From the NCBI GenBank assembly GCA_035278125.1, contig DATEJJ010000852.1, positions 757 to 64,756 of the forward strand: DNA of 64,000 bases. Direction: 5' to 3'. A model generated the notes under the pieces. That model did no database searches. It had not been told where the DNA came from and saw nothing but the letters and a program-made list of their open reading frames with translations. This stretch comes from Rugosimonospora sp. GTDB lineage: Bacteria > Actinomycetota > Actinomycetes > Mycobacteriales > Micromonosporaceae. The translations under genes and the position numbers were made by a program. The stretch's first letter is position 1, and every line of letters starts with the position of its first letter. Positions 1 to 24,772 of this stretch are shown in pieces.

Positions 1-173
1 TGGTCGATGAGCGAGACCGGCAAGCCCAGTGCGGCCAGCCCGACGGCGACGTTGTCCCCGGTCTGCCCGGCTCGACGCACGATGGCCGGCACCACGCAAC
101 TGTCGATCCCGGCGACCCCCAGCCTGGGTATGTATACCACCGTGTCGACACCCGTGCCGCCCAGCACGAGCAC
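1..173 (-). CDS. PfkB/ribokinase-family carbohydrate kinase, 5' fragment (gene runs off window start); AcbK-like by context
   Basis: Not in the ORF track (no stop in window). Manual minus-strand translation from GTG at 171-173 gives VLVLGGTGVDTVVYIPRLGVAGIDSCVVPAIVRRAGQTGDNVAVGLAALGLPVSLID. This has the PfkB N-terminal pattern (GG, G.N.A..LA.LG). It lies 7 nt downstream of the preceding GT stop on the same strand. Confidence 0.5.
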   Translation of the reverse strand, partial: MLVLGGTGVDTVVYIPRLGVAGIDSCVVPAIVRRAGQTGDNVAVGLAALGLPVSLID

Positions 174-180
174 CCGAGTG

Positions 181-2373
181 TCAGCCGTCATCCGCACCCA
201 CTCCGGAAGGATAACGGTCCCGCCGGCCGGCGACCCGGTGCGACCGGACCGGCACCATGTCCCAGGCGATACGTCCCGAGGCGAGCGTCAGCAGGAACAC
301 CAGATCCCGGGACTCGAAGCCCGGCGGCAGATCAGCCTCGAAGCCGCCGGGCCGCCGGGCCAGCGGACAGGTATACCGGTTGCCCCGGCCGGTATCGGGG
401 CCCTGTACCGAGTCGAGGATGAGATCCACCCGGTCGGCGTGCGGGAAGCGGTACGTGACCCGGTATCCGCCGCCGCCCGCTCGTACCCGGCACCGCTCCG
501 CCACCAGCGCGCGGGAGTCCGGGCCGGCCAGTTCCGCGAGCTCCGCACAGCGTTCGAAGTCGGCGCGGCGGTAGGCGGCGTCGAAGAGCCGCCGCACCGA
601 CGCGGCGTCGACCACGGCACAGCGTGCGTACACGTCCAGATCCCCGCGCTCCCGGGCCGCCTCGGCCACCCGGGCCCGCTGGGCCGTCCATCCGCTCTCA
701 CTGACCCGGTCGAACCAGCCGCTGTCGATGGCGAAGGCATCGGCCTCAGCACCCGCCCCGACCGGCGGCCCGGCGCGGAACCGCTCCAGGCGGCGCCCGG
801 CACACCGCTCCCACGTGAAGCTCCGGCCCACCTCCCGAGCGTTGCGCGACAACCGCCGGTAGGTCGCTGGGTCGTGCCGGAAAATGTCGACCGCGTGCTC
901 GATCGCGGTGACCAGGTTGGCGACCAGGCGCTCGTCCTTCGCCCGGAACGACCGTGGTACGGCGAAGCCGGTGGCCGCCGGATCCGACAGGGGCAGGGTG
1001 CAGCGGTAGTGGGTGAACGTCTGTTGGGCCGTGATGATGGGCACCGTGCCGCAGGCCATCGCCTCACCGAGCGCGATATGGAACGTGTCGAGTTCGAACT
1101 TGGACGGGAAAACGCAGAAGTCGGCCGCGGCGGCCTCATCGAAGAGGGCCTCCTCGTCGACCATGTTCCAGTCCAGGTACACGCGGCCCGGGTACCGGTC
1201 GGCGACCTCCTGGAAGTACGGGACGGCGGCCGAGGCGCGTACCGCGCCCGTGCCAACCGCGCACCGGATGACGAAGTTCAGGCCGGGGTCGTCGGCGAGA
1301 ACCCGATCCACCGCGCGCATGAGCTCGAACTGGCCCTTGTGGTTCTGGTCGAGGCGGGCCGCGTGGTAGAAGGTGGGGAGGCGCGCGTCCAGTCCACGCT
1401 CGGCGAGAACCCGGCTACGGTCCACTGTGGACGGATCGCGGGCCAGCCACCAGTCCGGCAGGGCACACCCGCCGACGAACTGCTTGTGGGCCGTCTCCTT
1501 GACGATGCGGGAGACGGTCCACCGCTCGAACCCGCGCTCCGACGGCGCGTCCCGGAAGGTGGAGTAGTACTGTCGCTGGCCCGGGGACAGGAAGTCGATG
1601 ATGTCGGTGTAGGCCGCCACCAGCGAGAAGTAGCAGGTGTAGTCGGGTCCGTAGTCAAACTGCCGGTAGGACGGGCGCAGGTAGTTGGCCATCGCGGTGT
1701 CCAGCGCGTCGCCCGGCGGCGGATCAGCGAACCGGTCGAGGTCGACGGTGGTGGAGAACATCCGCAGCAGGCGTTCGAGCTGCGGCCGGTACACCTTCTC
1801 GTTGATGGGTGAGTTGAGCGCGACGGTGCTGACGAGGGTACGGCCGGGCACACCACCCAGGACGGCTGGGAGCAGGTAGTGGTGGTAGGGCTCGTGGCAG
1901 TGTACGACCCCGGGCTCTCCGGCGAGCAGCCGCTCCACGAGGCGGACGGCGTCGACCTGGAACACCATCGGCTTGAAGTAGGCGAAATCGGTGCCGTGCG
2001 TCTCGTTGTCCGGGTAGAGCCGGTCGGGCAGCAGGTCGAGGTACTCGTTGGCCAGGAAGTAGATGTCCACGCCGTCCCGGCGGAGCAGGAATACCCGGGT
2101 GGACAAGGCGAGCGTCAACTCGACCGGATGGTCCGGCCACACCTTCGGATCGAGCACCAGCGGTACCGCGTGCGCTTCCCGGTACGGCAGTTCGCGCGCG
2201 CCGTACCGGTCCACCAGGTAGTCCGCGTGGCCGTGGGCCGGCGTGATCAGAGATACCCGGTGTCCGGTGGCCGCGTACTGCTGGGCCAGGTGCCACACGA
2301 GAGTGGCCGCACCGCCGCGCTTGAGCCGCCCGTCGAAGGCTATCGACTCGAAGGCGACCTTCACGATATGCAT
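181..2373 (-). CDS. Glycogen-synthase-like GT-B glycosyltransferase with ~230 aa C-terminal extension (AcbS/AcbI-like), paralog 1
   Basis: ORF 181..2532(-). Start moved to ATG 2373 (MHIVKVAFES), which matches the N-termini of paralogs 2 and 3. Motifs: HCHEPYHHY, FPSKFELDTF, GEAMACG. Overlaps the upstream gene stop by 13 nt. Confidence 0.85.
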   Translation of the reverse strand: MHIVKVAFESIAFDGRLKRGGAATLVWHLAQQYAATGHRVSLITPAHGHADYLVDRYGARELPYREAHAVPLVLDPKVWPDHPVELTLALSTRVFLLRRDGVDIYFLANEYLDLLPDRLYPDNETHGTDFAYFKPMVFQVDAVRLVERLLAGEPGVVHCHEPYHHYLLPAVLGGVPGRTLVSTVALNSPINEKVYRPQLERLLRMFSTTVDLDRFADPPPGDALDTAMANYLRPSYRQFDYGPDYTCYFSLVAAYTDIIDFLSPGQRQYYSTFRDAPSERGFERWTVSRIVKETAHKQFVGGCALPDWWLARDPSTVDRSRVLAERGLDARLPTFYHAARLDQNHKGQFELMRAVDRVLADDPGLNFVIRCAVGTGAVRASAAVPYFQEVADRYPGRVYLDWNMVDEEALFDEAAAADFCVFPSKFELDTFHIALGEAMACGTVPIITAQQTFTHYRCTLPLSDPAATGFAVPRSFRAKDERLVANLVTAIEHAVDIFRHDPATYRRLSRNAREVGRSFTWERCAGRRLERFRAGPPVGAGAEADAFAIDSGWFDRVSESGWTAQRARVAEAARERGDLDVYARCAVVDAASVRRLFDAAYRRADFERCAELAELAGPDSRALVAERCRVRAGGGGYRVTYRFPHADRVDLILDSVQGPDTGRGNRYTCPLARRPGGFEADLPPGFESRDLVFLLTLASGRIAWDMVPVRSHRVAGRRDRYPSGVGADDG

Positions 2374-23618: not shown

Positions 23619-23649
23619 TGTACAACCGACCAGATTGAGCAGTTGTACA
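23619..23649. promoter_or_regulatory. AT-rich inverted repeat TGTACAAC-N15-GTTGTACA just upstream of the candidate -35
   Basis: Perfect 8-bp arms read directly from the sequence. It sits between the StrR-like stop (23657) and the GT3 promoter. Confidence 0.35.
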
Positions 23650-23656
23650 TTCACCA

Positions 23657-24772
23657 CTACTGCCCCACCGCGGAGCCGATGCCGGAACCACCGGAGTCGA
23701 ACCGGTGCTCCAACGCGTCAGCCAGGTCCTGCCACTCCTGTGCGCAGGCCCGCGCGATCGCGGCCACCGTGTACAGGCAGTGTGGTGGCAGCGAACGCAG
23801 CAGGTCCGGTTCGGGCGGTCCAGCGGTCCGGGCGAAGAGGGTCCGCAGCAACTGCCGGCCGGAGTCGGTGAACCGCAACGACGGATCCCGGCTCAGGTTG
23901 CTCAGCAAGCGCTGCCGGTTCGAGCCGACGTACCGCCCGTTGAGGGCGTGCTCCCCCGGCACCGCGCGCACCGGCCCGGTACCGTCCGGTTCGGCTCGAC
24001 CCGCCGAGTCCGCCCGACCAGCCGGCCGGGCCCGGCGGTCCTCGGGGCCGGCGTTGTCGTGTCTGCGCGTGGCGACCTGACCGGGTGGCACCGGGTCTTC
24101 CCCGCGGCGGATCCGCTCGCGCACGTCCCGCACCGTTGATGGGGACAGGCCGGCCAGGTCGGCGATTTCGCGAAGCGACGCCTGCGGGCGTTCGGAGAGG
24201 GCGTCGCTGGCCAGTCGCCGGGCGTCGGCACTGTTGAGCGGGCGTATCCGACCGTCGCGACCAACCCGCGACTGGCCTGTCCCCGCCGCACCGGGCACGG
24301 CCCGGCAGCGAATGTCCCGTACCGTAGCGGCGGCCAGCCCGGTGATCCGCGCGATCGACCGGTCGGATGCCTGCGGGCGCGAGGTGAGTATGCGGGCCGC
24401 CGCGGCTTCCCGGTCCGCGAGCGTCAGCGGAAGACCGTGCGCGATGTTGGCCCGTACCCCGGCGATGAACGCCTCCTCGTCGGGGCCGTCGAAGAACTCG
24501 ACCTCGATCGTCTGGTCACCGCGCAATTCGGCGGCGCGCAGCCGGTGCATCCCGTCGATCACCTGCATGGTGGCCGGATGCACCAGGATCGGCGGCAACG
24601 TGGCCCCCGATTCGGCCAGCATCCGCGCGTGTTCGAGATTCTCGCCGGCCAGCCTGGGCGAGTCGCCCGCGCGCAGGGCACGTACCGATACCCGTTGACC
24701 GCTGGGTAGTTCAGGGCCGTGATCGGCCCACCGCACATCCGCTGCGTCCGCTCCGTCCGCTTGATTCGCCAT
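23657..24772 (-). CDS. StrR-family pathway-specific transcriptional regulator (ParB-like N-terminal domain + HTH)
   Basis: ORF 23657..24811(-). Start at ATG 24772 (MANQADG) with GAAGGAAG upstream. Matches StrR as I recall it: PPILVHPATMQVIDGMHRLRAAELRG, HGLPLTLADREAAAARIL, VGRDGRIRPL, LSRDPSLRFTDSGRQLL. Confidence 0.8.
   Translation of the reverse strand: MANQADGADAADVRWADHGPELPSGQRVSVRALRAGDSPRLAGENLEHARMLAESGATLPPILVHPATMQVIDGMHRLRAAELRGDQTIEVEFFDGPDEEAFIAGVRANIAHGLPLTLADREAAAARILTSRPQASDRSIARITGLAAATVRDIRCRAVPGAAGTGQSRVGRDGRIRPLNSADARRLASDALSERPQASLREIADLAGLSPSTVRDVRERIRRGEDPVPPGQVATRRHDNAGPEDRRARPAGRADSAGRAEPDGTGPVRAVPGEHALNGRYVGSNRQRLLSNLSRDPSLRFTDSGRQLLRTLFARTAGPPEPDLLRSLPPHCLYTVAAIARACAQEWQDLADALEHRFDSGGSGIGSAVGQ

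Follow-up and report, generated by a model that had tools for sequence, protein, structure and literature searches.

A probable acarbose-family gene cluster with a cyclase-cupin fusion in Rugosimonospora sp., of a subtype shared with Micromonospora schwarzwaldensis

The left end of a 64,000-nucleotide stretch of DNA from Rugosimonospora sp., an uncultured soil actinomycete (contig DATEJJ010000852.1; the whole analysed stretch is called the window hereafter) carries a C7N-aminocyclitol locus, which a first reading made from the sequence alone had assigned to the acarbose/validamycin family with a non-canonical gene set. Which of these two pathways the locus follows, and which of its features are really unusual, were the questions of this study. 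Acarbose is a widely used antidiabetic drug, and the longer acarviostatins are much stronger amylase inhibitors. To our knowledge, the acb pathway of Actinoplanes is the only acarbose-type pathway that is biochemically complete; the cyclitol route of the Streptomyces-type clusters (gac and sct), with its cupin, SctM and SctO, is a prediction.

The locus is probably an acarbose-family cluster for an acarviosine-type pseudo-oligosaccharide, which follows the gac/sct plan and represents a Micromonosporaceae subtype shared with M. schwarzwaldensis. As judged from the comparison of sequences, its really unusual features appear to be a cyclase-cupin fusion, a third clade of GT5 glycosyltransferase (GT), an exporter operon that also encodes a GlgE paralogue and two cytoplasmic GH13 enzymes, and the lack of AcbU, of a HAD phosphatase, of AcbQ and of a dTDP-glucose synthase/dehydratase in the 64 kb.

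Gene organization of the locus

The window is high-GC DNA of the actinomycete type (~70% GC). Eighteen genes were delimited at 1-24811 by frame analysis of the GC content at third codon positions (GC3), by Pfam and by gene calls on two independent assemblies, and all the genes listed by the sequence-only reading were present among them. The GC3 was 0.82-0.92 across all 18 genes, and no internal stop was found. Overlapping assemblies of the same DNA were available from Logan (L001) and ENA (L002), the cyclase and GT-C were 100% identical to proteins of the Rugosimonospora metagenome-assembled genome (MAG), and seven further window proteins matched exactly NCBI accessions between HKT03913 and HKT03928. 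Since no cluster protein reached a curated NCBIfam cut-off, no equivalog names were obtained.

The core genes form an operon on the minus strand, with mostly overlapping or few-base junctions. Towards coordinate 1, it reads as follows:

9022..10629, minus strand: cyclase-cupin fusion, 535 aa (Pfam DHQ_synthase, DHQS_C and Cupin_2)
7728..9032, minus strand: class-III aminotransferase, AcbV/SctV orthologue, 434 aa (Pfam Aminotran_3, 6e-85)
5582..7702, minus strand: GT-A, AcbS-clade GT5, 706 aa (57% to AcbS; neighbour-joining tree)
4486..5589, minus strand: GlgC-like nucleotidyltransferase, AcbR orthologue, 367 aa (Pfam NTP_transferase and Hexapep_GlmU)
3440..4489, minus strand: ROK kinase of the SctM/GacM type, 349 aa (Pfam ROK)
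2361..3440, minus strand: RmlD-like extended short-chain dehydrogenase/reductase (SDR) of the SctO type, 359 aa (Pfam RmlD_sub_bind, 1e-33)
181..2373, minus strand: GT-B, AcbI-clade GT5, 730 aa (48% to AcbI; neighbour-joining tree)
1..191, minus strand: start of a PfkB kinase, AcbK orthologue, first 63 codons (59% to the AcbK N-terminus)

A divergent operon on the plus strand holds an ABC ATPase, two permeases, GH13a, GH13b, a GlgE-like gene and an aldo-keto reductase (AKR) gene, and a convergent unit on the minus strand holds a regulator, GT-C and a GMC oxidoreductase gene.

The core enzymes are of the acarbose type

The Acb reference proteins came from the Actinoplanes sp. SE50/110 segment acbZ-YXW-VUSRPIJQKML (locus L004), which was found via an Actinoplanes match to GT-A; protein P0188 was taken as AcbS because of its position in the acb cluster. 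The functions of the Acb enzymes were taken from PMC9200736 and PMC7081202. Hundreds of AcbS-containing clusters from nine genera are on record (PMC9200736), and our survey covered 80 species-representative loci around AcbS orthologues, which were scored against every window and Acb protein. Each comparison locus extended 10 kb to each side of AcbS, and the frequencies of SDR, GMC, AKR and GH13 genes are therefore lower bounds.

The aminotransferase was 72% identical to AcbV over 426 aa and 67-75% identical to homologues in 76 of the 80 loci, and it is assigned to the dTDP-4-keto-6-deoxyglucose 4-aminotransferase type. SctV, the cluster of which also holds SctA and SctB, is 75% identical to AcbV (PMC8234114). 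The start of the aminotransferase gene overlaps the end of the cyclase gene, and a 28-bp gap separates it from GT-A. The nucleotidyltransferase, 67% identical to AcbR over near full length, is predicted to be of the valienol-1-phosphate nucleotidyltransferase type. The exporter is of the AcbWXY type (ATPase 59% identical to AcbW, permeases 43% to AcbX and 53% to AcbY), and its genes are divergent from the cyclase operon. The PfkB kinase, only the first 63 codons of which lie in the window, proved to be real: the complete protein on both L001 and L002 has 298 aa and a Pfam PfkB domain, and is 57% identical to AcbK over its full length.

For the cyclase part of the fusion, the best PDB match was ValA (4P53, 7e-71), followed by DDGS (5TPR, 2e-53), and dehydroquinate synthases (DHQS) scored 1.6e-47 or weaker. 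This part shared 57-63% identity with the cyclases from 76 species loci of the acarbose type that hold AcbS, and its close relatives carry the NCBI name 'sedoheptulose 7-phosphate cyclase'. The enzyme is thus grouped by sequence with the sedoheptulose-7-phosphate cyclases and not with DHQS, a placement on which the first reading had staked its case, and its product is predicted on this basis.

The glycosyltransferase that forms the C-N bond separates the two known systems. The val/vld cluster for validamycin A (Streptomyces hygroscopicus) shares with the window an EEVS-type cyclase, a ROK-type cyclitol kinase, a GlgC-like nucleotidyltransferase, the class-III aminotransferase family and the C-N coupling step (discussion in PMC9200736). 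However, its coupling enzyme is a GT20 protein (VldE/ValL), whereas the window has an AcbV orthologue with GT5 proteins of the AcbS and AcbI types. No GT20 gene (Glyco_transf_20) was found among all 18 genes of 1-24.8 kb, the only GTs there being GT5-like. Because of the Acb identities, the cyclase with ValA as its best match and the lack of GT20, the locus is considered to be acarbose-type and not validamycin-type; the acarbose half of the earlier title holds and its validamycin half falls away. The core scaffold of the product would very probably be acarviosine-like.

Compared with acb of Actinoplanes sp. SE50/110, also from the Micromonosporaceae, the window shares AcbC by function, V, S, R, I, K and WXY. 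It differs in having no AcbM orthologue (31% only), no L, U, J, P, Q, A and B, and no secreted AcbD/E/Z set, and its cyclitol branch relies instead on a cupin and an RmlD-like SDR.

The cyclitol branch follows the gac/sct plan

In the sct cluster of S. coelicoflavus, the gene order ends SctQ-C-J-M-O, and homologues of AcbO, AcbL and AcbN are lacking; SctJ (138 aa, 'no homologue') is a proposed 2-epimerase, SctM (350 aa) is 31% identical to AcbM, and SctO (324 aa) is a proposed dehydratase (PMC8234114). The Streptomyces gac core comprises A, V, W, X, Y, U, S, R, K, I, Q, C, J, M and O (PMC13240717). The window genes were equated with SctJ, SctM and SctO by gene order and size, using Table 1 of PMC8234114 and locus L083 of S. 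coelicoflavus.

On this comparison, the window and sct/gac share the SctC-type cyclase with a small cupin, the SctM-type ROK kinase, the SctO-type SDR, the lack of AcbL/N/O, and V, S, R, K, I and WXY, with window proteins 56-70% identical to those of L083. In contrast, the window has no SctU, SctQ, SctA or SctB; its cyclase and cupin are one polypeptide; its AcbI-type GT (730 aa) lacks the fused HAD domain of SctI (1027 aa); it adds GT-C, a GlgE paralogue, GMC and AKR; a putatively StrR-like regulator replaces the LacI/MalR-type regulators; and its exporter is divergent, in one operon with glucan enzymes.

The typical order in L016, L032, L035, L037 and L043 was C-J-V-WXY-U-S-R-M-O-P-(I)-J-Q-K-GMC-AKR, from which the window differs by the removal of some genes. 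Its order, C(J)-V-S-R-M-O-I-K, is that of L016, L032, L035 and L037 minus U, P, J and Q. Most of the listed differences are therefore part of the normal gac/sct design. The first reading had compared the locus only with the acb and val clusters, and most of the items that it gave as distinguishing features were not borne out. The RmlD-like reductase, GMC and AKR genes are present as claimed, but are not peculiar to this locus, with homologues in at least 33, 14 and 9 of the 80 loci, respectively. Likewise, AcbL was found in 3 of 88 loci (two Actinoplanes loci and S. cocklensis), and the lack of L, N and O is normal for gac/sct.

The ROK kinase, which the first reading had called AcbM/ValC-like, was 31% identical to AcbM vs 52-65% to the ROK proteins of gac/sct-type loci, and its type was found in 77 of the 80 loci; it is a predicted cyclitol 7-kinase of the SctM/GacM type. 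The RmlD-like SDR scored 115 bits against TIGR01214 (cut-off 224) and had weak PDB matches to RmlD. Its sequence shows the Rossmann motif GSGLIGG and a YxxxK motif. Homologues 47-56% identical were found in at least 33 of the 80 loci, with others often just outside the 10-kb flank, and where the gene order was mapped they came directly after the ROK gene. It is predicted to act on a cyclitol ketone by reduction and/or dehydration. An insertion of about 45 residues rich in Pro/Ala/Ser/Gly (residues ~31-75) lies right behind the Rossmann glycine motif; the homologues elsewhere are shorter (282-324 aa), and tblastn covered about 60% of the window protein.

The cyclase and the cupin are fused

The 535-aa protein consists of a sedoheptulose-7-phosphate cyclase (residues ~1-390), a linker (~392-427) and a cupin (~428-525), and by its sequence it corresponds to SctC and SctJ in a single polypeptide. 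The cupin alone does not set the locus apart, as had been thought, since a cupin homologue 52-67% identical occurs in 75 of the 80 species loci; the fusion is what is unusual. Both domains were spanned by only three of the best 150 matches among 1.84 billion representative proteins. Cyclase and cupin lay on the same strand in 79 loci (survey of the 80 species loci plus L001, L002, L003 and L008), as separate genes in 76 and fused in 3. The only fusions found were that of the Rugosimonospora MAG, one at 56-59% identity on the JGI metagenome contig L003, and those of two Streptomyces proteins. An assembly artefact was considered and rejected, as the identical 535-aa fusion open reading frame (ORF) is present in three assemblies and independent fusions occur in the JGI metagenome and the two Streptomyces.

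The cupin of these loci is taken to be SctJ because the order AcbQ, cyclase, cupin, ROK in S. coelicoflavus (L083) fits SctQ-C-J-M. Its predicted metal ligands, H467, H469, E474 and H508, were invariant in 78 homologues and would form a 3-His/1-Glu site. In the AlphaFold2 model, both domains were confident and the linker was disordered, and the docking of the domains could not be read from the full-length model. Foldseek of the cupin model returned generic small cupins only (TM1287, TM1459, archaeal phosphomannose isomerases, and DddK, a dimethylsulfoniopropionate lyase). Literature searches for a cupin together with EEVS or acarbose gave nothing relevant. The fusion and the invariable adjacency suggest that cyclase and cupin catalyze consecutive steps, and C-2 epimerisation is the most likely role for the cupin, since its nearest structures (phosphomannose isomerases and a lyase) use an enolate next to a carbonyl; this fits the role put forward earlier for SctJ.

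One of the Streptomyces fusions lies in a small cassette of Streptomyces sp. NPDC047880 (L089, 10001-14115; JBEZOK010000031.1), composed of fused cyclase-cupin, ROK, RmlD-like SDR and an AcbP-like NUDIX gene (71% identical to AcbP), and adjoining Cap4-nuclease and UvrD-like helicase genes. The gene order is that of the window (fusion 52%, ROK 54% and RmlD-like SDR 41% identical); unlike the window, the cassette has the NUDIX gene, and neither a GT nor an aminotransferase or nucleotidyltransferase gene lies within 10 kb of it. Because the cassette stands alone, these four genes are regarded as one cyclitol-making module, and the cassette may make a free C7-cyclitol. The fusion and the four-gene cassette show which proteins matter for closing the gap in the cyclitol route.

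A third GT5 clade

GT-A, GT-B and GT-C were pairwise 43-45% identical, close to the 42.5% of the AcbS/AcbI pair (PMC9200736). In a neighbour-joining tree (100 bootstraps), GT-A fell inside the AcbS clade, and it is a predicted pseudoglycosyltransferase making the C-N bond. GT-B fell in the AcbI clade (bootstrap 89-98), being 62% identical to P0257 of M. schwarzwaldensis, and it lacks the HAD domain that is fused to its Streptomyces counterpart. GT-C lay outside both clades, 43-44% identical to AcbS, AcbI, GT-A and GT-B. Among 5.8 billion proteins, it had only two closer relatives, each at 50%: P0242 of M. schwarzwaldensis, joined to it with a bootstrap of 98, and P0243 of S. cocklensis, with a bootstrap of 85. 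At the residues that discriminate AcbS from AcbI, GT-C had three AcbS-like, three AcbI-like and four other residues. None of 88 other loci held three GT5 genes within 22 kb. The claim that three large GT paralogues are unusual was therefore sustained, the third one being a clade of its own.

Other GT5 arrangements were also observed. In S. cocklensis (L007, 6760-16777), the GT-C relative is the sole GT5 of a cyclitol cluster, which has no aminotransferase and carries an acb-type branch (AcbM 62%, AcbL 68%, an SDR and AP_endonuc_2) with an AcbR-type gene and a HAD gene; this cluster is a candidate for a non-nitrogen-linked pseudoglycoside. An AcbS orthologue without an AcbI-type partner within 10 kb was present in L010, L011, L013, L017, L020, L035, L037, L043, L061, L069, L073, L078, L082 and L087. 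These loci belong to Streptomyces/Kitasatospora, most of them also have RmlD-like, AcbP, GMC and AKR genes, and they probably represent the 'AcbS without AcbI partner' subclade of Tsunoda et al. 2022. L024, from a Nakamurella sp. MAG, holds AcbS-type, AcbI-type, AcbU-like (34%) and HAD genes, with no cyclase, aminotransferase or nucleotidyltransferase within 10 kb. In Streptomyces alfalfae XY25, one acarbose-type locus appeared on three contigs (L071, L077 and L079) with equal per-gene identities to the window, either by triplication or by assembly redundancy.

Glucan enzymes, redox pair and regulator

The genes of the divergent operon and of the convergent unit are the following:

10868-11890, plus strand: ABC ATPase, AcbW type (Pfam ABC_tran)
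11884-12687 and 12684-13505, plus strand: two ABC-2 permeases, AcbX/AcbY type (Pfam ABC2_membrane_6)
13533..15347, plus strand: GH13a, cytoplasmic, maltodextrin-glucosidase/cyclomaltodextrinase-like, 604 aa (Pfam Alpha-amylase)
15337..16974, plus strand: GH13b, second cytoplasmic GH13, 545 aa (Pfam Alpha-amylase)
16971..18728, plus strand: GlgE paralogue, alpha-1,4-glucan:maltose-1-phosphate maltosyltransferase type, 585 aa (Pfam GlgE_dom_N_S and GLGE_C)
18809..19819, plus strand: AKR, 336 aa (Pfam Aldo_ket_red, 1e-52)
19845..21365, minus strand: FAD-dependent GMC oxidoreductase, 506 aa (Pfam GMC_oxred_N and GMC_oxred_C)
21378..23519, minus strand: GT-C, third GT5 paralogue, 713 aa (own clade in the neighbour-joining tree)
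23657..24772, minus strand: putative pathway regulator, 371 aa from the ATG at 24772 (Pfam helix-turn-helix only)

GH13a scored 356 bits against the MalZ-type NCBIfam model, below the cut-off of that family, and no signal-peptide-like stretch was seen when its N-terminus was read by eye; its orthologues are in M. schwarzwaldensis (60%) and Hamadaea (48%). GH13b was 29% identical to the catalytic domain of AcbZ, and its orthologues (60-61%) adjoin the GlgE paralogue in the same two organisms. The GlgE-like enzyme, claimed earlier as a peculiarity of the locus, is both real and unusual. It matched mycobacterial GlgE (PDB 5CGM) at 3e-195 over aligned residues 101-576, with the FRVDNPHTKP and LAEAFTR blocks conserved, and lacks about 100 aa of the N/S domain of the solved GlgE structures. 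By its GlgE (GH13_3) domains and catalytic core, it is classed as a predicted GlgE. Its orthologues (57-58%) lie inside the M. schwarzwaldensis and Hamadaea clusters, and that of M. schwarzwaldensis is full length (668 aa).

The PDB relatives of the GMC protein were alcohol, choline and 5-hydroxymethylfurfural oxidases. GMC orthologues at 58-66% were found in M. schwarzwaldensis besides the species loci counted above, and AKR orthologues at 65-70% stood beside GMC genes in nine Streptomyces/Kitasatospora acarbose-type loci.

The regulator (HKT03928.1) carries the NCBI name 'ParB N-terminal domain-containing protein', and its Pfam helix-turn-helix matches lie at residues 190-227. By its motif, it is a putative StrR-like regulator. 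In one Streptomyces locus (L035), a homologue (44%) is encoded upstream of the cyclase gene. The S. griseus-type palindrome GTTCGA-N17-TCGAAC was absent from the intergenic regions of the cluster; with two mismatches, it had seven matches, all within genes, and 4 of 100 shuffles reached seven. A search of the promoter regions for StrR boxes and inverted repeats gave nothing above chance.

Genes not found in the window

The lack of Acb genes was assessed by tblastn (E<1e-3) over the whole 64 kb, and no match was obtained for AcbU, AcbJ, AcbL, AcbP or AcbQ. The earlier claim that AcbL/N/O/U/J are missing is thus upheld for U, J and L. AcbN and AcbO were checked by family, and no AcbN-type adh_short gene and no AP_endonuc_2 gene, which we take to be the family of AcbO, was found in 1-24.8 kb. 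A HAD phosphatase (AcbJ/HAD), present in 78 of the 80 comparison loci, was likewise not found in the 64 kb. AcbU lay within 10 kb of AcbS in all 80 loci, and directly upstream in all ten with a mapped order; AcbQ was present in 70.

The operon runs past coordinate 1, as the first reading had stated, so that some of these absences are provisional and hold for the window only. L001 continues for ~110 further bases beyond the complete PfkB gene, with a possible gene start 44 bp on, and then ends; the contigs that overlap the left end of the window stop 50-110 bp after PfkB. A 21-codon ORF behind PfkB had no resemblance to any Acb N-terminus. The exact 44-mer from the PfkB 3' end had no match in the JGI metagenomes, and a look-up of GT-B by cluster id and exact sequence, made for the DNA past coordinate 1, returned no record.

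Two extended SDR genes outside the cluster were considered as the missing 4,6-dehydratase and rejected. That at 31947-32852 scored 63 bits vs the TIGR01181 cut-off of 365 and was 28% identical to the SctB homologue; that at 56370-58187 matched an epimerase-type Pfam profile and was also 28% identical to the SctB homologue.

A sister cluster in Micromonospora schwarzwaldensis

The window was not near-identical to any described cluster, a resemblance that would have told against the first reading. The closest system overall was that of M. schwarzwaldensis (BAAGTP010000015.1, ~87-122 kb; L006 and L008, 35 kb). It shares GH13a, cyclase, cupin, aminotransferase, WXY, the AcbS type, the AcbR type, GH13b, GlgE, GMC, the AcbI type (62% to GT-B), a GT-C orthologue (50%), the RmlD-like SDR and the ROK kinase. 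It has three GT5 paralogues and, like the window, no AcbU and no AcbQ over its 35 kb. It differs in that the cupin is a separate 121-aa gene, that a HAD phosphatase, a NUDIX (AcbP-like), an extra GT4, a LacI regulator and GH1/GH31 genes are present, and that no PfkB or AKR occurs in the 35 kb seen. The Hamadaea tsunoensis cluster has the GlgE/GH13 module in common with the window, but retains AcbU.

Because M. schwarzwaldensis carries this sister cluster, the window is regarded as a Micromonosporaceae subtype and not as a one-off. The subtype is marked by the lack of the AcbU/HAD steps, by its third GT5 clade and by a GlgE inside the cluster, and it may yield new inhibitors or carbasugar-coupling enzymes. 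As M. schwarzwaldensis is in culture, the ideas are testable without the uncultured source.

Proposed pathway

By homology, the cyclase domain would convert sedoheptulose 7-phosphate to 2-epi-5-epi-valiolone. The fused cupin would act next on that ketone, most likely as a C-2 epimerase via an enediolate, and may also help in 5,6-dehydration; the fusion, the invariable adjacency and the conserved 3-His/1-Glu site point to this step. The SctM-type ROK kinase would then phosphorylate C-7, and the RmlD-like SDR would give valienol 7-phosphate. The phosphate must be shifted to C-1 thereafter. Because AcbU and the HAD phosphatase are missing, the usual route from valienol 7-phosphate to valienol 1-phosphate is not available from the window genes; the genes for it may be located past coordinate 1, or the shift could take a mutase-like route.

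From valienol 1-phosphate, the AcbR orthologue is expected to make NDP-valienol. The AcbV orthologue would aminate dTDP-4-keto-6-deoxyglucose, supplied from outside the window, to dTDP-4-amino-4,6-dideoxyglucose. By orthology, GT-B (AcbI type) should transfer the amino sugar to maltose or maltodextrin, and GT-A (AcbS type) should make the C-N bond. The AcbK-type kinase would phosphorylate the product and AcbWXY would export it, thereby serving self-protection and export. GT-C, the GlgE paralogue and the two GH13 enzymes could shape or supply the glucan part in place of AcbQ: GH13a (MalZ-like) may supply maltose, and the GlgE paralogue with GH13b may replace AcbQ in tail remodelling. GMC and AKR would be a recurrent redox accessory pair.

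Several points weigh against this interpretation. The cupin, SctM and SctO are uncharacterised, and the roles that the literature gives them were proposed from bioinformatics (PMC8234114). The generic structure matches of the cupin do not separate an epimerase from a dehydratase. The steps from valienol 7-phosphate to valienol 1-phosphate have no candidate gene in the 64 kb. A dTDP-glucose synthase and a 4,6-dehydratase, already noted as absent by the first reading, are lacking from the whole 64 kb, where the SctA/SctB homologues of L083 match only at 26-28%. The operon is cut at coordinate 1, with up to ~2.6 kb of the source contig beyond PfkB. Finally, the roles of GT-C, GlgE and the GMC/AKR pair were guessed from protein family and gene context.

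Alternative explanations

Short of probable, but to be taken seriously, is an ordinary acarbose/acarviostatin cluster with a known product, the missing genes of which lie past coordinate 1 or elsewhere, and in which GT-C, GlgE, GMC and AKR tune the chain length. The core enzymes are clear Acb orthologues, the DNA beyond PfkB could hold AcbU and a HAD gene, Streptomyces clusters also have GMC/AKR pairs, and acarviostatin-type chain variation arises from glucan-active enzymes (PMC8234114). In addition, dTDP-4-keto-6-deoxyglucose could come from a neighbouring deoxysugar polyketide cluster or from housekeeping rml genes. However, AcbU was near AcbS in every comparison locus, whereas here the aminotransferase abuts the AcbS-type gene, and the independent M. 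schwarzwaldensis cluster likewise has neither AcbU nor AcbQ. The three GT5 paralogues within 22 kb were seen in no other examined locus, and GT-C has just two relatives at >=50% identity, which also argues against an ordinary cluster.

That the product is new is plausible, and it may depart from acarbose in its details. More speculative is the idea that the subtype makes an undescribed family of pseudo-oligosaccharides, with a third GT5 class, extension by GlgE, an AcbU/AcbJ-free route and the cupin as 2-epimerase/dehydratase; we hold it only tentatively. If it is true, GT-C might install an extra cyclitol or sugar by a linkage not made by AcbS or AcbI, and maltose 1-phosphate would be the donor with which the shortened GlgE paralogue lengthens the inhibitor. 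On the way to NDP-valienol, the pathway would bypass the AcbU/AcbJ kinase-phosphatase detour and convert valienol 7-phosphate to valienol 1-phosphate in a new way, and the fusion would be direct genetic evidence for the cupin as the long-missing 2-epimerase/dehydratase of the gac/sct family.

It is unlikely that the right-hand arm (GH13a, GH13b, GlgE, AKR and GMC) is neighbouring primary glucan metabolism outside the cluster. GlgE and GH13 genes are usually housekeeping alpha-glucan genes, and the paralogue of the window closely resembles the mycobacterial GlgE. Nevertheless, these genes, placed between the core and GT-C, come after AcbWXY on the same strand, and their junctions either overlap or are short; M. 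schwarzwaldensis and H. tsunoensis have the GlgE/GH13b pair inside their clusters, and the GMC/AKR pair travels with Streptomyces and Kitasatospora acarbose-type clusters.

Quite unlikely, too, is a decaying gac/sct-type cluster that has lost AcbU, the HAD phosphatase, AcbQ, AcbP and AcbA/B and makes no finished product. Steps essential in Actinoplanes (PMC9200736) have no gene here, and the 25-34 kb flank has a lower GC content and ORFs without a family match. Yet the 18 genes are intact, their GC3 is uniformly high, and their starts and stops overlap as is typical of expressed operons. A cultured Micromonospora has the same gene losses in an intact cluster, and both the metal ligands of the cupin and the catalytic blocks of GlgE are conserved.

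A validoxylamine-like product, with two N-linked cyclitols made by a ValM-like aminotransferase acting on a keto-cyclitol, would agree with the extra GT5 paralogues and with the missing dTDP-glucose synthase and 4,6-dehydratase, but is highly unlikely in view of the AcbV-level identity of the aminotransferase, similar to that of SctV, the lack of a VldE/ValL-type enzyme and the presence of an AcbI-clade sugar transferase.

Flanking regions

The segment at 24812-34100 is a spacer between two clusters, with a lower GC content (0.66-0.68) and most ORFs without a Pfam match, apart from those for a PadR regulator (31217-31759) and for the epimerase-like SDR at 31947-32852. A peptide motif near 25.05 kb may be transposase-like.

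A second cluster, for a type II polyketide decorated with deoxysugars, occupies 34107-63422, and dTDP-4-keto-6-deoxyglucose for the acarbose-type cluster could come from its sugar pathway. Its genes are as follows:

34107-34961: SARP regulator
37120-38688, 38970-41045 and 42293-43495: three EryCIII-like glycosyltransferases
46058-47065: ketoreductase
47292-47759: cyclase
47995-49362: chain-length factor
49230-50537: ketosynthase-alpha
58184-60604: phosphoenolpyruvate-utilising enzyme
61637-63422: DrrAB-like exporter

Its tailoring genes encode O- and C-methyltransferases, one or two P450s, and ABM and anthrone oxygenases.

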